A DNA stretch of 64,000 nucleotides from Woeseiaceae bacterium (GCA_030066625.1 JASJBG010000005.1:10731-74730), one strand, 5' to 3'. Positions 45,834 to 54,074 are shown, counted from the stretch's first letter. Made by a program: numbers and translations. The notes: generated from the letters alone by a model not told the origin.

Positions 45834-46787
45834 TCAGACCACGCGGTTGCGCTGCTCGCCGGCGATGAACGCGCGGACATTCGCCGCGAGCTCGTCGATG
45901 GCGTTCTGGCGTGCTTCGTTGGTCGCCCAGGCGATGTGCGGCGTGACGATCAGGTTATCCCCCTCGTAGTCGAGCAGCGGGTCGCCATCGACTGGCGGTT
46001 CCTTCGGCAGCACATCGACGGCAGCCGCCGCAATGTCGCCATTCTCGAGCGCCGCCGCCAGCGCTGCCGAATCCACGAGCCCGCCGCGGGCCGTATTGAT
46101 CAGTATGGCCGACGGTTTCATCGCTCGAAATTGCTCAGCGCCGAACAGGTTGCGGGTCTGCTCGTTGAGCGGGCAGTGCAGCGAGACGACGTCGGACTGC
46201 TCCAGGACGGTGGCGAACGGGAAGCGGTCCTTGGGGACCTGCTCCGCCCATGGCCGCGCCGAGACGAGCACGTTCATGCCGAGCGCGGTGCCCGCGCGGG
46301 CGACACCCTGGCCGAGTTCGCCGAAGCCCACGATGCCGAGCGTCATCGCCGACAGCTCGCGCACCGGGTGAGTCAGCAGGAACGGGTCAACGGCCTTCTG
46401 CCATTCGCCCGCGCGAACCGACGCGCGATAGGCCGGCAGGCTGTGCGTCAGCATGAGCAACACGCCGAAGACATGTTCGACGACAGACTGGGTGCAGTAG
46501 CCGCGGATATTCGCGACGCCAATGCCGTGTTCCTCGGCGGCGGCGAGGTCGATGTTGTCGGTACCGGTAGCTGTCAGGCCGATGAACCTGAGTTTCGGCG
46601 CCTGCTGGAGCAGTTCCGGCGTGAACCGAAACTTGTTCGTAAAGACTATGTCGACGTCGCGGATGCGTTCGGCAATTTCGTCATCGCTGGTTACGTCGAA
46701 GACGTCGAGGGAGTCGACGCTTTCATGCAGAACGGTCAGGTCGAGGCCGGGACCCATGGTCCCGTAGTCCAGGAATACGGCTTTCAT
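45834..46787 (-). CDS. D-isomer-specific 2-hydroxyacid dehydrogenase (glycerate/hydroxypyruvate reductase-like)
   Basis: Start MKAVFLDYG (46787). NAD fold GIVGFGELGQGVA. LINTARGGLVD and VTPHIAWAT catalytic blocks. Confidence 0.9.
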   Translation of the reverse strand: MKAVFLDYGTMGPGLDLTVLHESVDSLDVFDVTSDDEIAERIRDVDIVFTNKFRFTPELLQQAPKLRFIGLTATGTDNIDLAAAEEHGIGVANIRGYCTQSVVEHVFGVLLMLTHSLPAYRASVRAGEWQKAVDPFLLTHPVRELSAMTLGIVGFGELGQGVARAGTALGMNVLVSARPWAEQVPKDRFPFATVLEQSDVVSLHCPLNEQTRNLFGAEQFRAMKPSAILINTARGGLVDSAALAAALENGDIAAAAVDVLPKEPPVDGDPLLDYEGDNLIVTPHIAWATNEARQNAIDELAANVRAFIAGEQRNRVV

Positions 46788-46825
46788 AGATTGACCATGA
46801 CCGAATGGTCGTGAACACGCAAGAA

Positions 46826-46851
46826 GGCCGGGCCGCCTGTGCAGCCCGGCC
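46826..46851 (-). terminator. Hairpin GGCCGGGC-N10-GCCCGGCC downstream of the repeat lipoprotein gene
   Basis: Perfect 8-bp GC stem 15 nt after the stop at 46866, followed on the minus strand by TTCTTGCG. Confidence 0.45.
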
Positions 46852-46865
46852 ATCGCGTCGCATGA

Positions 46866-48566
46866 TCAGTAGCCGGAGCCGGTGGTTGTCGACTGGGTCG
46901 TCTGCGGGCTGACCGTGAACCACGCACCGTAGACGCCGTTGACGTCGGTCGTGGTCGGGTCGCCCGAGAAGAAATACAGCGGGTCGCCCTGGTACGTCCA
47001 CTGCCGTGAGCCGTCGGCGCGATCGATGATGTCGAAGTCACCGCTCGGCTTGTCATCAGCACCGGCATACAACGGTGGCCAGGTCACCGCGCAGCCGCCG
47101 TTGCAGTCCGAGTCGTCCGCGCCGTCGCCTTCGGCGTCGTTGCGGTCGTTGTCGAAGCGGTACAGCGTGAAGCCGGTCTTGTCCGACAGCGTGCCTGCCT
47201 GGTCGCCGTTCGCGTCGACATCGTAGATCAGTCCGCGCGCTTCGAAGATGGCGCCGGCCGATGCGTCGGTCACGACCTGCACCGGGGCGATCCTTGCGAG
47301 GTGCCAGACACCGCCGATCTCATCGCCGTTCGCGTCGCCAGGCTGGGTGTCGTTGGCGAAGAAGTACAGCGGCTCCTCATTGACGGCCCACTGGCGGCTA
47401 CCGTCGTCGCGGGTGATCAGCGAGAAAGGTGCGCTCGGCGTCGCTGCCGCATCGGCAAACAGTGGCGGCCACGTCACGGCGCAGCTGCCGTTGCAGTCCG
47501 AGTCGCCACTGCCGTCCGCCTCGGTGTCGTTCGCGTCATTATCGAACACGTACAGGCTGAAGCCCGTGAGTTCCGCGCGCTCGAAGGTCTTCTCGCCGTT
47601 GGTATCCGTACCGGGCGCGGATGTTGCGCCTGTCAGGATCGGCCCCAGCGACGAATCGGCCGTCGTCACCGGCGAAGGACGCGCTACGTACCAGACGTTG
47701 CCGGCGCCTTCGCCATTAGTGTCGCCCGGTGCCAGGTCCGGCGCGTAGAAGTACAGCGGCAGTCCGTTGAGCGCCCACTGCCGGGTGTCGTCGTCGCGCG
47801 TGATGAGCGTGAACGGTCCACCTTCGGTCGCACCCGGATCCGCGTACAGCGGCGGCCACGTCACCGCGCAGCCGCCGTTGCAGTCCGAGTCGCCCGGACC
47901 GTCGCCCTGTGTGTCGTTACGGTCGTTCTCGAAGGTGTACAGCGTCAGGCCGTCGCGATCGGCACGATCGACCGCACGGGCGCCGCTGCCGTCGACATTG
48001 GAAACGCTGCCGCGACCGACGAAGACCGTGCCTTTCGCGCTCGCGTCGACGTCGGCAAGCACCCAGGGATTGGGCCGAGCTACGTACCAGGCGTCGCCCG
48101 AGCCATCGCCGTTGACGTCGCCGGCCGCCGAGTCGCCCGAGAACGTGTACAGCGGCAGTCCCTTGAACGCCCACTGCAGGTTGGTGCCGTCGTCGCGCGT
48201 GATGATCGAGAACTGGCCCGCGGCGACGGAGCTCGCGTCGGCCAACAGCGGCGGCCAGGTATCGGCGCATGCATCGTTGCAGTCCGAGTCGCCGGCTCCG
48301 TCGCCCTGGGTGTCGTCGCGGTCGTTCTCGAAGGTATACAGGCTGAGGCCGTTGGCCTCCTTGGCAAAAACGTCGCCGATGCTCGTCGCCGCGACGGCGC
48401 CGGGCGCCGAGACCTGCGCCGAATTAACGGGCGGAGGCGGCGGGCTTGCAACCGGCGGCGTAGGCGTGGTCGGTGCGATCGCATCGTCGGAGCTGCTGCA
48501 GCCGGCCAGGGCCAGCAGCAGGCCGGCAGCCGACAGGGCGATGCGGCGAATGTGTGTCGTCTTCAT
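46866..48566 (-). CDS. Lipoprotein with four tandem modules of the COG4315 / Yx(FWY)xxD 'secreted repeat' type
   Basis: GAGGA Shine-Dalgarno 9 nt before the ATG at 48566. Lipobox LALAGC and a Pro-rich linker. Then four roughly 130-aa modules: G(L/F)xLY(T/V/R)F(E/D)ND..D...DG..DSDCN..CA.TWPPL...F.(I/L)I.R.DG..QW...G.PLY.F..D..GD.NG. Confidence 0.8.
   Translation of the reverse strand: MKTTHIRRIALSAAGLLLALAGCSSSDDAIAPTTPTPPVASPPPPPVNSAQVSAPGAVAATSIGDVFAKEANGLSLYTFENDRDDTQGDGAGDSDCNDACADTWPPLLADASSVAAGQFSIITRDDGTNLQWAFKGLPLYTFSGDSAAGDVNGDGSGDAWYVARPNPWVLADVDASAKGTVFVGRGSVSNVDGSGARAVDRADRDGLTLYTFENDRNDTQGDGPGDSDCNGGCAVTWPPLYADPGATEGGPFTLITRDDDTRQWALNGLPLYFYAPDLAPGDTNGEGAGNVWYVARPSPVTTADSSLGPILTGATSAPGTDTNGEKTFERAELTGFSLYVFDNDANDTEADGSGDSDCNGSCAVTWPPLFADAAATPSAPFSLITRDDGSRQWAVNEEPLYFFANDTQPGDANGDEIGGVWHLARIAPVQVVTDASAGAIFEARGLIYDVDANGDQAGTLSDKTGFTLYRFDNDRNDAEGDGADDSDCNGGCAVTWPPLYAGADDKPSGDFDIIDRADGSRQWTYQGDPLYFFSGDPTTTDVNGVYGAWFTVSPQTTQSTTTGSGY
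46930..48380. repeat. Intragenic tandem coding repeats, period about 387-399 nt, four copies
   Basis: The landmark TTGCAGTCCGAGTC (reverse complement encodes DSDCN) recurs at 47101, 47491, 47878 and 48277. Confidence 0.85.
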
Positions 48567-48618
48567 GGTGTGTGTCCTCATGGCGGTCAGGGGCCGGCAG
48601 CGTGCCGGGTATGGCCAT

Positions 48619-48649
48619 GAATGCCCTCGAAGGACCAAAACGGTTCAAC
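48619..48649 (-). promoter_or_regulatory. ECF-type promoter-like motif facing the repeat lipoprotein gene
   Basis: Minus strand reads GTTGAACCGTTTTGGTCCTTCGAGGGCATTC. It shares GTTGAACC-nTTTT-N7-T-n-GAGG with the plus-strand copy at 48691. Confidence 0.35.
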
Positions 48650-48690: not shown

Positions 48691-48721
48691 GTTGAACCTT
48701 TTTCCGAACTTGAGGTGTTAA
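48691..48721 (+). promoter_or_regulatory. ECF-type promoter-like motif facing the sigma factor operon
   Basis: GTTGAACCTTTTTCCGAACTTGAGGTGTTAA, with a TGAACC -35-like box and 17-nt spacing to TGTTAA. It ends 29 nt before the ATG at 48750. Confidence 0.35.
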
Positions 48722-48749
48722 CCGTGCAACGGGTACTTTGGAATGGACG

Positions 48750-49349
48750 ATGACAGCTCTGGCAGCAGCCGGAACGGATTGCACGGTTCGTATGACGGCA
48801 GCCACATCAGATCTCGACGACCGCTCGCTGATCGAGCGAATCGCTGACGCGCGCGACGCGGGCGCCTTCGAGCGCCTGTATCACGACTACCGACGTCGGC
48901 TCGGGCCATTCATGTACCGGATCGTTCGCGACCCGGCGGCCAACGAGGAAGTATTCAATGACGTCATGCTGACCGTGTGGCGCAAAGCCGAGACCTACAA
49001 CGGCCAATCGAAGGTCTCGACGTGGATCTTCGCGATCGCATACCGGCAGTGCCTGAAGGTGCTGCGCGGCCGCCCGGACACGGTCGGCATCGACGAGGCG
49101 CCGGAAGAGAGCGTCGACGAGCGCGGCACGACGGAACGTCGCGACCTGGTCGGCCAGGCGATCGCACAGCTGTCGCCCGAGCACCGGCTCGTCATCGAGC
49201 TGTCCTACTTCCAGGGCAACACGTACTCGGAAATCGCCGCAATTGCTGATTGTCCCGAGAACACGGTCAAGACACGCATTTTTTATGCGCGGCGACGCCT
49301 GAAAGAGATCATGGCGGCGCTCGGTGAGCGCCCCGCGGTTGAGGATTGA
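48750..49349 (+). CDS. ECF (sigma-70 family group IV) RNA polymerase sigma factor
   Basis: Region 2 ...AFERLYHDYRRRLGPFMYRIV...DVMLTVWRKA. Region 4 ...YFQGNTYSEIAAIADCPENTVKTRIFYARRRL. Start ambiguous (TTG 48738, ATG 48750 or ATG 48792). Confidence 0.9.
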   Translation: MTALAAAGTDCTVRMTAATSDLDDRSLIERIADARDAGAFERLYHDYRRRLGPFMYRIVRDPAANEEVFNDVMLTVWRKAETYNGQSKVSTWIFAIAYRQCLKVLRGRPDTVGIDEAPEESVDERGTTERRDLVGQAIAQLSPEHRLVIELSYFQGNTYSEIAAIADCPENTVKTRIFYARRRLKEIMAALGERPAVED

Positions 49350-49972
49350 TGATGAATAACGTAACGCAGGTAACGGACCTTGCAGAGATCGAAACGGATC
49401 TGGAGGTGGTCGACTACGTAGCCGGGCGACTTGGTGCAAGCGAGTCCGAGGCTTTCGAAGCTCGCATGGCCGGGGATCCCGACCTGAAGGCCCGGGTCGA
49501 CGCGGAGATTGAATTCAGCGCGGCAATCGTCAACTCCGCTGGCAGCGAAGCTCCACGCGCCGGCGCCTTTGATGCCATCGCCCACGAGGTCGATGACCGC
49601 GGTGCCTCTCGCGCGGCCGATTGGCGAACACTGGCGGTCGCCGCGAGCGTTTTGGCTGCCGCCGCTGTACTCGTCTTCTCACAGATCAGGTCGCCAGAGG
49701 CCGAGAAGGACTTCGAGCTGTTATCGAGCGACGGTGCGCAGGTCGTCGTTGAAGCGAACCGCGTCCGGCTGCTGTTCGCCGAGGGACTCACGGCGGACGC
49801 TCGTGAAGCCGTCGCCCTCGAGCTCGGCTTCAGGATCGTCTCGGGCCCCGGCCAGGGTGGTGCGTTTGTCGTCGAGACCGAGTCGGCGTTGCCGCGCGAG
49901 CAACTGCTCGGCTGGCGGGACGATCCGCGCATTGAGCTGGCCGAGCCGATACGCTACGACGTGGATCCGTGA
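49346..49972 (+). CDS. Single-pass anti-sigma factor with propeptide-like periplasmic domain
   Basis: Start overlaps the sigma stop (TGATG). N-terminal anti-sigma helix region (VVDYVAGRLGASESEAFEARMAGDPDL), TM WRTLAVAASVLAAAAVLVF, then a roughly 85-aa C-domain. Confidence 0.7.
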   Translation: MMMNNVTQVTDLAEIETDLEVVDYVAGRLGASESEAFEARMAGDPDLKARVDAEIEFSAAIVNSAGSEAPRAGAFDAIAHEVDDRGASRAADWRTLAVAASVLAAAAVLVFSQIRSPEAEKDFELLSSDGAQVVVEANRVRLLFAEGLTADAREAVALELGFRIVSGPGQGGAFVVETESALPREQLLGWRDDPRIELAEPIRYDVDP

Positions 49973-51192
49973 ACACACACAAATACATTGCTCTGCTGCT
50001 TGTCGGGTTGATCACCCATTGGCCTGCGACGGCACCGGCCGGGGACACGGACGCAGTCGCCGACGAGTGGATCGTCGTCATGACCGACACGCGTTCGAGT
50101 CGGCGCCGTGGCTGGTCATCCGGCGTGGGCTATGCGGGTAGCTACCAGTACGACGAGGATCCGAAGCTCAAGCGCCTGGCCGCGGAGCTCGCCCGGGATT
50201 TCTCGCTCGAAGTCACCAGGCAGTGGCCGGTACGTTCACTCAACGTCCACTGCGTCGTGGTTCGCATCGGTGACGATCTCGATGCGACGCTCGAGGCGCT
50301 TCGCGAGGACTCGCGTGTCGAGTGGGTGCAGCCGCTCAATACCTTCGAAGGCCTCGCGACGCTGGACGGTGGAAACACTTCACCGGTTGACCCGTACCGG
50401 CACCTGCAGAGCTCGCTCGAAATGCTGAACGTGGCCCCCGTGCACAGGGCGCTGAGCGGCGCCGGCGTCCGTATCGCCGTGGTCGACTCCGGCGTCGAGC
50501 CCGATCATCCCGACATCAAGCACGCGCTGGCTGAACAGGTCGACTTCGTCGGCCGCGGTGATCTCTCGGAACGCCACGGCACCGGCATTGCCGGCGTCCT
50601 CGTGGCCGCGAACCACAACGGTGTCGGCATCACGGGGGTTGCCCCCGGCGCGCACCTGCACGCCTATCGCGCTTGCTGGGAACTCAACGGCGGCACACGC
50701 TGCAACAGCCTGACGCTGTCGCAGGCGCTCGACCGGGTCGTCGATGCGAGGCCACACATCGTCAACCTTAGCCTGACCGGACCGAAAGACCCCTTGCTCG
50801 ACAAGCTCGTCGGCCGGATCGTCGGCGCCGGGACTATTGTCGTCGTTGCGCACGACGAAGACGCGGTGGGGGAACGGTTCCCGACGCCGCGGCCGGGCGT
50901 CGTCATCGTCCGCGACGGATCAGGCGTCGCGGAAACCACCGGTGACACACTGTTTGCACCCGGCGGTGCGGTGCTGACGGCCCAGCCGGGTCACTCCTAC
51001 GATTACATGTCCGGTGCGTCGATGGCAGCTGCTCACGTTTCGGGCGTGCTTGCGCTGATGCTCGAGGCCGACCCGGCCGTGAACGCTACCGATACGCTGT
51101 ATGCCCTGACAGAGAGCGTACGTGCCGCGGAAGGTGGCGCCAGCGTGGATGCCTGTGCCGCCGTGAGCGTCGCGAACTTCTCCTGCGATTAA
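49969..51192 (+). CDS. Secreted S8 (subtilisin-like) serine peptidase with N-terminal pro-region
   Basis: GTGA overlap with the anti-sigma stop. Signal peptide. Triad blocks VAVVDSGVEPDHPD, HGTGIAGVL and SGASMAAAHVSGVLAL. Confidence 0.9.
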   Translation: MNTHKYIALLLVGLITHWPATAPAGDTDAVADEWIVVMTDTRSSRRRGWSSGVGYAGSYQYDEDPKLKRLAAELARDFSLEVTRQWPVRSLNVHCVVVRIGDDLDATLEALREDSRVEWVQPLNTFEGLATLDGGNTSPVDPYRHLQSSLEMLNVAPVHRALSGAGVRIAVVDSGVEPDHPDIKHALAEQVDFVGRGDLSERHGTGIAGVLVAANHNGVGITGVAPGAHLHAYRACWELNGGTRCNSLTLSQALDRVVDARPHIVNLSLTGPKDPLLDKLVGRIVGAGTIVVVAHDEDAVGERFPTPRPGVVIVRDGSGVAETTGDTLFAPGGAVLTAQPGHSYDYMSGASMAAAHVSGVLALMLEADPAVNATDTLYALTESVRAAEGGASVDACAAVSVANFSCD

Positions 51193-51881
51193 CGGAACAG
51201 GTAACTCACGCGGGCGGCGACGTTGCTACGGTCCGTTGCGAAGATAAATCCCGAGTCCTCGTCGACCTCGTTGAATGAGATCGAGAAGTCGGCCCGGCCG
51301 ACGCTGTACCCGATGCCGAATTCCCCGTACCCGATAACCTCGTCCCAGATCCCACCGATGTAGCCGGCACCGACGGATACGTGCAGGTACGTACGCTCGC
51401 CGAGCGCAGGTCGCCAGGTCCCGGCCGCAAGGACATGTTCGCCGTCACGGCCGTAGTAGTCGGGAGAGTATGCGAAAGTCAGGGACGCCTCGGCCGAGAG
51501 GTGGTAGTCGGCACGAACCTCGAAGTAGCTCCAGTCGGTTACGTCGATAAACTCGTTGTAGGCGAGGGAGACTTCGATCGCTTTCTCGTCACCCATTTCG
51601 CGAAACCAACCGGCGTAGCCATGCACGTTTCGATTCAATGCAAGGCCGGACGGTGTGCCGTTCGCGTAATAACCACCAAGACCGGCGAACCAGCCCGAGG
51701 CGCTGTCCAGGCTCAGGGCCATGCCTGCCGCGGGTGCGTCGCTCAGCGCCGCGCCACGATGCACGACCTCGGAGAAAACGTGGCCCTCGACGGTGACGTC
51801 TGCTGTGGCAGGGTGCATTACAAATGCTGCGACGAACGCACCAACAAGTCGCCAACCGGTTTTCTGCTCTGAAGCCTGCAT
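51189..51881 (-). CDS. Small outer-membrane beta-barrel protein (TIGR02001/Gcw_chp-like)
   Basis: Start MQASEQKTGWRLVGAFVAAFVMHPATA (signal-like). Alternating Gly/Tyr strands (GGYYANG, AGYIGG, GIGYSVG). C-terminal RVSYLFR. Family call is tentative. Confidence 0.6.
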   Translation of the reverse strand: MQASEQKTGWRLVGAFVAAFVMHPATADVTVEGHVFSEVVHRGAALSDAPAAGMALSLDSASGWFAGLGGYYANGTPSGLALNRNVHGYAGWFREMGDEKAIEVSLAYNEFIDVTDWSYFEVRADYHLSAEASLTFAYSPDYYGRDGEHVLAAGTWRPALGERTYLHVSVGAGYIGGIWDEVIGYGEFGIGYSVGRADFSISFNEVDEDSGFIFATDRSNVAARVSYLFR

Positions 51882-51915: not shown

Positions 51916-52878
51916 TCAGCCCGCGGCCGCGCGCCGCCGAAGCTTGTCTTCGTACATCCTCGCGTCGGCATCGGAGAGCAGGCTCTCGATCGTCGTGTGC
52001 CGCTCGGGGTCGAGCCTCACGCGGCCGACGCTCCAGGCGAGCGTGCCGCAGAACTCGCCGCAGTTGGCTTCCGCGAGCTGCTCGAGACGTTTTAGCGCTG
52101 CTTTCGATTCGCCGTCGGAACCGGCCATGAACACGGCGAACTCGTCGCCGCCGAGCCGCGCGACGACGTCGGCCGATCGGAAACACTTGGTCAGCAGCTC
52201 GGCGAACAGTTTGAGCAGTCGATCGCCCGCTTCGTGGCCGTGCTCATCGTTGACGGCCTTGAAGCCGTCGAGATCGAAGAATGCGATCTCGGCGCTCGTA
52301 TCCGTGCGTCGGCAGAGCGACAGCACGTGACGTGCGAGGTTGTTGAAGCCCCGTCGGTTGGACACGCCCGTGAGTTCGTCGATGGTCGACCGCGCGACCA
52401 TTGCCAGTTCGTCCTCGACCATCGCCGCAAAGTCACGCAGCGTTTCCTGCTCGTCGACCGACAGGCCGCGCGGCTGACTGTCGATCAGGCACAGCGTGCC
52501 GACGCGGTGGTTCATTGGGCCGCGGATCGGGCAGCCGGCGTAAAAGCGGATGTGCGGTTCGCCGGTCACGAGCGGGTTGTCCGCGAAGCGCGGATCGGTG
52601 GCGGCGTCGCCGACAATGAATACGCGATCGTCGAGGATTGCGTGGCCGCAGAACGAGATCTCGCGGCCGGTCTCGCAGGCGTCGAGGCCCTGCCGGGATT
52701 TGAACCACTGGCGGTGCGAGTCGACGAGGCTGATCAGGCAGATGTCGATCCCGAACAGGCGCTGTGCCATGCGGGTGATGCGGTCGAAGCGCTCCTCGGG
52801 TACCGTGTCGAGGATGCGCAGTGAATGCAGGCTCATGAGGCGCGCCGTCTCTTCGAGGGGATGCGGCGGTTTAATCAT
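51916..52878 (-). CDS. GAF domain-containing diguanylate cyclase
   Basis: N-terminal GAF-like region (...FCGHAILDDRVFIVGDAATDPRFADNPLV...), then GGDEF (RLGGDEFAVFM) with an RxxD-like I-site region upstream. Confidence 0.9.
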   Translation of the reverse strand: MIKPPHPLEETARLMSLHSLRILDTVPEERFDRITRMAQRLFGIDICLISLVDSHRQWFKSRQGLDACETGREISFCGHAILDDRVFIVGDAATDPRFADNPLVTGEPHIRFYAGCPIRGPMNHRVGTLCLIDSQPRGLSVDEQETLRDFAAMVEDELAMVARSTIDELTGVSNRRGFNNLARHVLSLCRRTDTSAEIAFFDLDGFKAVNDEHGHEAGDRLLKLFAELLTKCFRSADVVARLGGDEFAVFMAGSDGESKAALKRLEQLAEANCGEFCGTLAWSVGRVRLDPERHTTIESLLSDADARMYEDKLRRRAAAG

Positions 52879-52932
52879 TCGAATCTCCGTTCTCCACAGA
52901 CTGTATCGGCTGGAAAGGGCGGGTCTTTAGCC

Positions 52933-53367
52933 GTGGCGGAGCGCTTCTGGGAGCAGAAGAGCCTGGCCGAGATGTCGAAGGAGGAATGGGAGTCCCTCTG
53001 CGACGGTTGCGGCCTGTGCTGCATGCACAAGGTCGAGGACGAAGACACGGAGGAGGTCTTCTACACTAACCTCGCGTGCAAGCTGCTCGATGTCGAGGCC
53101 TGTCGCTGCACGGACTACGCGAACCGTGCGAAAAAAGTCGCAGATTGCCTGGTCCTGTCGCCGGAGACCGAGGCATTCGACTGGCTGCCCGCGTCCTGCG
53201 CCTATTTCCTGCTCGCGAGCGGCGACCCACTGCCCGACTGGCACCCGCTGATTACGGGCGATCCTGAGTCGGTCCACGACGCCGGCATCTCGGTGCGCGG
53301 CAAGGTCGTCTCCGAGAACGACACGGACGAGTGGACCGCGCTCTGGAAGGTGCGCGACGAGGGCTGA
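52933..53367 (+). CDS. ycgN: UPF0260 family Cys-rich protein YcgN
   Basis: [49 protein letters not shown]...CRCTDY closely parallels E. coli YcgN. GTG at 52933 chosen by N-terminal length comparison; the track start is 52825. Confidence 0.8.
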
Positions 53368-53402
53368 TTCACGGTTACAATGCCGCCGAACAAGGAGGCC
53401 CC

Positions 53403-54074
53403 GTGAGCGACTACCCGACCATCCCGCTGGAGACCTTCCGCGAGTATCCGCTGGAGGAAATGCGAGCGCGCCTGAAGGCGTTCTACGAAGACGTGAATCG
53501 CCGTCGCACCGTGCGCGACTTCTCGGACCGGCCGGTGCCGCGCGACGTCATCGAGACGGCGCTGCGGGCTGCAAGTACGGCGCCGAGCGGCGCAAATATG
53601 CAGCCGTGGCACTTCGCCGTCGTGTCGGGCCCGGAAACCAAGCGGAAAATTCGCGAAGCGGCGGAGGCCGAAGAGCGGGAGTTCTACGGTCACCGCGCGT
53701 CCGAGGAGTGGCTGGCCGCGCTGGCGCCGCTCGGCACTGATGCAGACAAGCCGTTCCTCGAAACGGCGCCGTACCTCATCGCCGTGTTCCTGCAGAAGTT
53801 CAGCGAAGAAGAGGGCGAGAAGGTGAAGCACTATTACCCGGTCGAATCGACCGGACTCGCGACCGGGATACTGATCACGGCCCTGCACCATGCGGGCCTC
53901 GCGACGCTGACGCACACGCCGAGCCCGATGAAATTCCTGAACCAGATTCTCGGCCGGCCGAGCAACGAACGGCCGTTCCTGCTGCTGGTCGTCGGCTACC
54001 CGGCCGAGGACGCGACCGTTCCCGACATCACGCGAAAACCACTCGATGAGTTCACGTCCTTTATTGACGATTAG
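53403..54074 (+). CDS. Nitroreductase-superfamily flavoprotein, iodotyrosine deiodinase (IYD)-like
   Basis: [13 protein letters not shown]...[10 protein letters not shown] (NTR fold), plus an EEREFY...K lid with IYD spacing (see findings). GTG start at 53403. Confidence 0.8.

Follow-up and report, generated by a model that had tools for sequence, protein, structure and literature searches.

The 64,000-nucleotide stretch of Woeseiaceae bacterium DNA analysed here (GCA_030066625.1 JASJBG010000005.1:10731-74730; hereafter the window) encodes three consecutive genes, which code for a sigma factor of the extracytoplasmic function (ECF) type, an anti-sigma factor and a subtilisin-like protease of family S8. 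The analysis is computational throughout and deals with predicted genes and proteins. An initial annotation of the sequence had proposed that the periplasmic C-terminal domain of the anti-sigma factor (hereafter the C-domain) looks like the pro-region of the neighbouring protease and may act as a decoy propeptide for it. We find that the C-domain is homologous to the neighbouring protease's prodomain, or at the least mimics it closely, and that the pairing of such an anti-sigma factor with an active S8 zymogen is near-obligatory. The genes and protein segments concerned are the following, where pLDDT stands for the predicted local distance difference test score of the AlphaFold2 models.

48750..49349, + strand: ECF sigma factor with σ2 and σ4 only (Sigma70_r2, r4 and Sigma70_ECF matches)
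49346/49349-49972, + strand: anti-sigma factor, 207/208 residues
49349..49621, + strand: predicted cytoplasmic domain of the anti-sigma factor, helical, without zinc motif (NCBIfam 'antisigma' and AlphaFold2 model)
49622..49684, + strand: the anti-sigma factor's only transmembrane helix, predicted at residues ~93-113 (hydrophobic WRTLAVAASVLAAAAVLVFSQI; modelled helix 92-113)
49712..49726, + strand: juxtamembrane motif F123-E-L-L-S127, candidate site-1 cleavage site (family logo, linker of low pLDDT)
49736..49969, + strand: periplasmic prodomain-like domain, residues ~131-208, including the 7-residue tail after AEP (fold and family homology)
49969-51192, + strand: S8 protease, 407 residues
49969..50058, + strand: predicted signal peptide and N-terminal linker of the S8 protease (hydrophobic N-terminus MNTHKYIALLLVGLITHWPATAPA; low pLDDT over residues 1-30)
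50059..50358, + strand: the S8 protease's own prodomain, residues ~31-130, with the junction F126-E-G-L-A130 at 50344-50358 (AlphaFold2 model)
50389..51192, + strand: S8 catalytic domain with Asp173, His203, Asn266 and Ser351 (Peptidase_S8 PF00082, E = 3e-27)

The open reading frame (ORF) of the sigma factor begins with TTG 48738; its likely true start is ATG 48750, a codon that related loci (L002, L004) share. TTG 48738 and TTG 48638, the latter opening the divergent lipoprotein ORF described below, are mechanical ORF starts and both fall within predicted promoters. The three genes have overlapping stop and start codons, as the initial annotation had read them: the sigma stop TGA (49347-49349) overlaps the anti-sigma ATG 49349-49351, giving TGATG at 49347-49351, and the anti-sigma stop TGA (49970-49972) overlaps the protease GTG 49969-49971, giving GTGA at 49969-49972. 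The two peptide stretches that it had likened to each other are likewise present, and both finish in the shared pattern that it gave, as LLGWRDDPRIELAEP in the anti-sigma factor and LEALREDSRVEWVQP in the protease.

By its domain content, only σ2 and σ4, the window sigma belongs to the ECF (group IV) sigma-70 factors. Pfam matches were obtained with Sigma70_r2 (1.4e-11), Sigma70_r4 and r4_2 (about 1e-13) and also Sigma70_ECF, and TIGR02937 of NCBIfam is matched at 90 bits (cut-off 42.9). Its best NCBIfam match, PRK12515 (130 bits), lies under its cut-off, as does every NCBIfam equivalog. Among solved structures, R. sphaeroides RpoE and M. tuberculosis SigL come closest to it. According to its AlphaFold2 model, the window anti-sigma factor is of the class I single-pass type, in which an N-terminal helical domain, here with helices at residues 12-25, 31-43, 45-65 and 73-84, is followed by one transmembrane helix. 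NCBIfam 'antisigma' is matched over residues 22-137 with E = 1.5e-8, which is below the family cut-off, and weak Foldseek matches to ChrR and RslA were found. The HxxxCxxC zinc motif expected of zinc-associated anti-sigma (ZAS)/zf-HC2 domains is absent from the window anti-sigma factor; it is present in 75 of 162 anti-sigma relatives, and zf-HC2 is matched by 84 of 149.

The third gene is predicted, from its model, to encode an active classical zymogen, which is secreted and carries its own N-terminal prodomain. The catalytic residues D173, H203, N266 and S351 are invariant across 66 homologs, and, across some 400-440 columns, the model (pLDDT 88, predicted template-modelling score, pTM, 0.87; pLDDT >90 in the catalytic domain) fits onto unautoprocessed pro-subtilisin E, pro-Tk-subtilisin, SUB1 and fervidolysin. 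Its prodomain consists of β33-39, α65-77, β80-88, β93-100, α104-113 and β117-122, followed by a strand at residues 125-128 and, at residues 135-142, by a modelled disordered linker. By alignment with subtilisin, F126-E-G-L129|A130 should represent positions P4-P1|P1' and hence the putative autoprocessing site. The window S8 is 100% identical to a protein of a Woeseiaceae metagenome-assembled genome. The mature domains of the cognate S8 proteases, that is, those encoded beside related anti-sigma factors, are uniformly compact (about 270-300 residues). The signal peptide of the window S8 is a plain one. With a crude regular expression, a lipobox-like L-x-[GAS]-C was found after the hydrophobic N-terminus of 41 of the 79 cognate S8 proteases, for instance in L012, L015 and L016. 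Many of them may be lipoproteins, and the lipobox-like motif would suggest that these enzymes are retained in the envelope rather than secreted. A role as a secreted nutritional protease was considered and rejected, since compact size, fixed synteny and the frequent lipobox-like motif argue otherwise. A conserved insert, TRSSRRRGWSSGVGYSGSYNY, is found between β1 and α1 of the Woeseiaceae-type S8 prodomains (residues ~43-64, 50095-50160; low-confidence model). It is rich in Arg, Gly, Ser and Tyr and is absent from zinc-finger-type loci.

AlphaFold2 models residues 130-205 of the anti-sigma factor with a pLDDT of 83-94 as β-α-β-β-α-β, the fold of subtilase prodomains, in support of the idea of a propeptide-like structure. 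The top Foldseek matches among 350,542 chains of the PDB are the furin-bound prodomain of PC1/3, the prosegments of subtilisin BPN' and E and the I9 inhibitor POIA1, and S8 prodomains or POIA1 occupy ranks 1-6, 9, 11 and 17. The E-values of these matches are modest (8e-3 to 6e-2), with target-normalised template-modelling scores of 0.56-0.67. A sequence-profile search of the PDB with the C-domain returned noise only. The sequence likeness to the protease's pro-region claimed in the initial annotation holds for fold and family homology and fails for the Pfam I9 model: Inhibitor_I9 (PF05922), to which the shared end pattern had been ascribed, is not matched at E ≤ 10 by either the C-domain or the whole protein, and this family is not among the 25 most often matched by 149 relatives.

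The closest family of the window anti-sigma factor comprises 19 proteins from Woeseiaceae-type metagenomes. Their best-conserved part is the last ~85 residues, in which W190, R191, D193, R195, I196, A199, E200, P201 and Y204 are invariant. An exhaustive search with a profile of just this domain yielded 191 representatives, nearly all of them 200-250 residues long and with the domain at the extreme C-terminus. As a single pair, the window anti-sigma factor and the pro-region of its protease share a 12-residue BLASTP match (E = 0.021), which is not convincing alone, and shallow-profile hhalign of the same pair gives 2% probability; significance is reached only at the level of the families, with ~160 and ~80 sequences. 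When 162 C-domains were compared with 79 cognate S8 prodomains, hhalign returned a probability of 87.6% and P = 3.5e-6 over 74 columns that cover all six secondary-structure elements. Reversed or column-shuffled controls scored 6-15 compared to 36.6 for the real pair and reached a probability of at most 1%. In addition, PF22148, the N-terminal prodomain of fervidolysin (Fervidolysin_NPro-like), is matched by 77 of 149 relatives scanned singly (best E = 1.8e-7). These matches fall on the C-terminal domain, as in P0093, which scores 25.3 bits where the gathering cut-off is 21. The prodomains of cognate proteases align to this very segment of the PF22148 profile, the prodomain of the window S8 with E = 0.026.

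The gene arrangement is conserved well beyond this organism. A scan of one genome per species, for which 13 closer sequences served as query and only members with LLPWY[VA]NGT were accepted, revealed 361 confirmed loci in species-representative genomes from at least six phyla; due to the restriction to LLPWY[VA]NGT members, this number undercounts the family. The best 80 of the 361 loci were examined and come from Acidobacteriota, Gamma-, Beta- and Alphaproteobacteria, Gemmatimonadota, Thermodesulfovibrionia and Spirochaetales. The C-domain is present in all 80, an ECF sigma gene lies just upstream of the anti-sigma gene in 78, and an S8 catalytic domain begins 360-750 nucleotides downstream on the same strand in 75 (about 94%); in two further loci, the S8 gene is located divergently upstream. 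The synteny of sigma, anti-sigma and S8 genes noted in the initial annotation is thus found across several phyla, with the S8 as the next gene in those 75 loci. Seven close loci share one order, namely a divergent Lipoprotein_15 gene, then sigma, anti-sigma and S8, then a convergent gene for a protein of ~224 residues, and their outer flanks vary. In a distant zinc-finger-type relative, sigma, anti-sigma and S8 follow one another with overlapping gene ends, and a reverse search that started from S8 homologs of only 38-41% identity recovered the same trio. Carriers in culture include Dyella nitratireducens, D. acidisoli, Lysobacter niastensis DSM 18481, Noviluteimonas caseinilytica, Sphingomonas mali and Mizugakiibacter sediminis.

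Outside the fold, no feature of the anti-sigma factor is better conserved than the juxtamembrane motif, which is located about 10 residues past the transmembrane helix. Its logo over 162 representatives reads [F57/Y39]-x-[T89]-[L91]-[S73/T13/A8], and it stands at a fixed distance ahead of β1, namely 16 residues in 89 of the 162. The prodomain junction of the cognate S8 proteases has a similar logo, [F90/Y10]-x-[T/G/A/V]-[L59]-[A44/G24]. Within single loci, motif and junction are often nearly the same and read YHTLS and FHTLA in Dyella, FETLS and FEGLA in Woeseiaceae, and YRTLG and YRTLG in Mizugakiibacter. The identity between motif and junction within loci is 145; shuffled pairs give 118±5, and the observed value was not reached in any of 2000 shuffles. 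This test is inflated by shared ancestry. At the other end of the C-domain, the commonest length of the tail that follows the final 'AEP' strand is exactly 7 residues (51 of 162; median 7; at most 7 in 113 of 162), and in the S8 prodomain P1 falls 7 residues past the equivalent 'QP'. It follows that many anti-sigma factors end where a cleaved prodomain ends. The sequence of the tail is conserved only within the Woeseiaceae-type subfamily (AEP[IV]RY), and a conserved aromatic 'RY' tail as a general mimic of P1 was rejected because it is confined to that subfamily.

Two putative promoters and two neighbouring genes complete the picture of the locus.

48693..48722, + strand: predicted ECF-type promoter of the sigma/anti-sigma/S8 operon (−35 TGAACCTTT; −10 region around GGTGTTAAC)
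48623..48647, − strand: mirror-image copy of the promoter motif, facing the divergent Lipoprotein_15 gene (pattern match)
46866..48581, − strand (ORF opens at TTG 48638): Lipoprotein_15 (PF03640) gene with eight repeats and the lipobox LAGC (Pfam E = 4.9e-72)
51189..51863, − strand: Gcw_chp-like putative outer-membrane β-barrel protein of ~224 residues, convergent in all Woeseiaceae-type loci

The −35 element TGAACCTTT upstream of the sigma gene is invariant across five related loci, and the mirrored copy is conserved in related loci as AAA(A/C)GGTTCA. The pattern TGAACCKTTT-N12-RGG has exactly two matches in the window, where 0.09 are expected, and these are the operon promoter and its mirrored copy. 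TGAACC also occurs upstream of the sigma gene in 65 of 84 loci (77%) compared to a background of 7%. The sharing of this −35 element across loci therefore points to one promoter specificity for the whole family, which is probably autoregulated; in the window, the sigma factor probably autoregulates its own operon through the TGAACC-type promoter.

The Lipoprotein_15 gene carries a separate copy of the ECF-type promoter motif and is therefore probably a regulon member. Judged from the sequence, its start is ATG 48581 or 48566, and each of its repeats contains D-G-x-G-D-S-D-C-N-x-x-C-A-x-x-W-P-P-L. Its divergent position is conserved in all Woeseiaceae-type loci, and it neighbours the cluster only there and in L027. 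The convergent Gcw_chp-like gene may be a fourth component of the module. Of 91 loci, 37 have homologs of it next to the cluster, and in Proteobacteria these usually come straight after the S8 gene (for example L056:5929-6624 and L050:5854-6552). Homologs that adjoin the cluster match Gcw_chp (PF09694), a predicted outer-membrane β-barrel family, at E = 1.4e-21; they are linked to the window copy through jackhmmer, and the window protein has no direct Pfam match of its own.

A 320-residue GGDEF protein (51916-52878, − strand; RLGGDEFAVF), probably a diguanylate cyclase, adjoins the module and is not conserved with it. Between 46900 and 48750, both strands contain many long antisense or overlapping ORFs, such as 47301-48620 (+ strand, 439 residues), which we regard as non-genes because the high G+C content produces them. 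In L006 and L007, the cluster is flanked by genes for a 2-hydroxyacid dehydrogenase, a CxxCxxCC protein and a nitroreductase, and the window ORFs 45834-46853 (− strand), 52825-53367 (+ strand) and 53331-54074 (+ strand) appear, by comparison of translations only, to be equivalent to them. With this correspondence, the loci closest in synteny to this Woeseiaceae contig would be L006 and L007.

As regards fold, homology and synteny, the idea of the initial annotation was substantially right; the mechanism that we propose below is a hypothesis. We hypothesize that the locus encodes an envelope signalling module of four to five genes, in which the mature S8 protease docks onto the pseudo-prodomain of the anti-sigma factor and acts as its dedicated site-1 protease, a model that we would give even chances of being correct. 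The autoregulated ECF sigma factor is predicted to be held by the single-pass anti-sigma factor. Once the secreted S8 zymogen has processed itself and shed its own prodomain, the mature protease would be captured by the pseudo-prodomain, which would occupy the prodomain-binding face of the S8, with its free C-terminus usually at the position equivalent to P1. In the next step, the S8 would cut the anti-sigma factor at the juxtamembrane [F/Y]-x-T-L|[S/A], in the window F123-E-L-L|S127, a motif that would copy the protease's own autoprocessing junction F126-E-G-L|A130. The cut would leave a stub of ~12 residues for a site-2 protease of the RseP type, leading to the release of the sigma factor. 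From the TGAACC-type promoters, the freed sigma factor would then transcribe the operon that encodes it and also, in this organism, the divergent Lipoprotein_15 gene. Such a module would report the amount of active, prodomain-free protease in the periplasm.

Several points speak against cleavage by a docked S8 protease. The tail and the juxtamembrane motif cannot fill one active site simultaneously, and the motif reaches the domain with a chain polarity opposite to that of the prodomain tail. As the tail is not conserved outside the Woeseiaceae-type subfamily, its insertion into the active site is not assured. The comparison of motif and junction within loci carries no control for shared phylogeny, and the autoprocessing site of the S8 is itself an inference. 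Co-transcription of a protease with its substrate amounts to positive feedback, which is unusual for ECF systems. Lastly, the link between the window C-domain and the prodomains is modest when taken singly: its best Foldseek E-value is 8e-3, the ferredoxin-like fold is common, with RRM and BLUF among the weaker matches ranked below the prodomains, and the window anti-sigma factor has no Pfam prodomain match, including PF22148 at E ≤ 1.

Alternatively, the S8 protease may bind the anti-sigma factor without making a signalling cut. The pseudo-prodomain could be a membrane-tethered inhibitor or anchor, or the bound S8 could shield the anti-sigma factor from another site-1 protease. In the latter case, titration of the S8 by its substrates, or its loss, would result in degradation of the anti-sigma factor, induction of the operon and replenishment of the S8, that is, in homeostatic negative feedback, which co-transcription suits better than positive feedback. 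Binding of this kind fits the same fold, homology and synteny evidence as the cleavage model, and an extreme C-terminal domain with a modal tail at the P1-equivalent position resembles a product-type inhibitor complex. There is also precedent in that accessory genes of ECF operons often encode partners of the periplasmic domain of the anti-sigma factor; RseB and MucB bind such domains, and RseB shields RseA. On the other hand, binding alone leaves unexplained why the juxtamembrane [F/Y]-x-T-L-[S/A] is strongly conserved, why its spacing is fixed and why it is similar to the prodomain junction, and the poor conservation of the tail argues against tight inhibition of the active site. We consider binding without a signalling cut rather unlikely, and it is the main alternative.

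We see only a slim chance that the S8 protease is merely an output of the regulon, that the C-domain senses some other signal and that its likeness to prodomains stems from the common ferredoxin-like fold. The missing Pfam I9 match, the modest Foldseek E-values and the RRM and BLUF folds in the same list would agree with this, and ECF sigma genes are sometimes co-transcribed with their targets. However, a common fold does not account for the PF22148 matches of 77 of the 149 relatives, or for a strong profile-profile similarity that is specific to the cognate prodomains and has clean controls. Moreover, prodomains outrank every other ferredoxin-like fold among the PDB chains searched, and the adjacent S8 gene is kept in about 94% of the loci, in at least six phyla, whereas flanking genes vary. 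It is more improbable still that the C-domain is a foldase that acts in trans, like an intramolecular chaperone, to mature the S8 at the membrane without a role in signalling: its fold would fit, given that subtilase prodomains are folding catalysts, as established for subtilisin, but each cognate S8 retains a complete and confidently docked prodomain, which makes a second foldase unnecessary, and the C-domain is always fused to an anti-sigma domain and always found beside an ECF sigma gene.

Returning to cleavage by the docked S8 protease, we propose, with somewhat less than even confidence, that the module represents a widespread signalling class, which spans at least six phyla and includes hundreds of species or more. 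In this class, the sensor would be a duplicated prodomain, and a dedicated subtilase instead of a DegS-, PrsW- or Prc-type enzyme would serve as the site-1 protease, recognising its substrate via the surface on which prodomains dock and cutting at a duplicate of the site where it processes itself. Since the module is found in cultured strains, this hypothesis is directly testable. If it is true, bacterial transmembrane signalling would gain S8 as a new protease class and prodomain mimicry as a new principle of recognition, and there would be a first functional entry point to a compact S8 subfamily whose only annotation is 'S8 family serine peptidase'. One might also speculate that an orthogonal triplet of sigma factor, anti-sigma factor and protease could serve as a protease-gated synthetic switch.

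To our knowledge, the mode of signal sensing has been worked out for a minority of the >100 ECF groups, and the number of identified site-1 proteases is small. No prior description of an ECF/S8 module or of a prodomain-like anti-sigma domain was found in the literature searched, which lacked the older ECF classification and the supplements of the newer survey. The S8 gene neighbourhood may already be catalogued for some ECF group, perhaps one rich in Xanthomonadales, even if prodomain mimicry is not.

The module has the outline of the E. coli σE-RseA-DegS-RseP pathway and of AlgU-MucA-AlgW, in which a single-pass anti-sigma factor holds back an ECF sigma factor. As in the σE pathway, a juxtamembrane site-1 cut by a periplasmic serine protease is proposed to precede the action of a site-2 protease. 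A protease gene in an ECF operon is not without precedent, as the algU-mucABCD operon includes mucD, which codes for a periplasmic serine protease. A description of DegS is given in PMC8103513. In contrast to DegS, the protease discussed here is a subtilase (S8) and not an HtrA-type enzyme (S1), it has no PDZ domain, and it is encoded beside its presumed substrate in about 94% of the loci. The periplasmic domain that copies a prodomain has no known counterpart in RseA or MucA.

The C-domain itself is best compared with subtilase prodomains and I9 inhibitors such as the prosegments of BPN' and E, PC1/3, PCSK9, POIA1 and fervidolysin, with which it shares β-α-β-β-α-β and the C-terminal signature L..L..DP.V...EP. 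Like a cleaved prodomain, it has, in many members of the anti-sigma family, a free C-terminus at the position equivalent to P1. It differs from them in being fused via a transmembrane helix to an anti-sigma domain, so that it is neither part of a protease nor a free inhibitor, and in being undetected by Pfam I9 and in having a tail whose sequence is not conserved across the family. In the recently recognised cases of RsgI and the SEAL domains, the site-1 event of the anti-sigma factor is set by how its extracytoplasmic domain is folded (PMC10328401, PMC10556640). Unlike these self-cleaving domains, the C-domain would depend on a separate, dedicated protease that is co-encoded with it and whose prodomain it mimics.

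A similar logic is found in eukaryotes, where S1P/SKI-1 and S2P act on SREBP and where, as proposed here, a subtilase makes the site-1 cut upstream of intramembrane cleavage. S1P, a member of the subtilisin/kexin family, performs the luminal cut in SREBP, which licenses intramembrane cleavage and the release of the transcription regulator. SREBP is not known to have a prodomain-like recognition domain, and no evolutionary link is known between the eukaryotic system and the bacterial module, which is a compact operon. If our model is correct, this operon would nevertheless represent a bacterial counterpart of the S1P/S2P logic, in which the activation of a zymogen is the signal.

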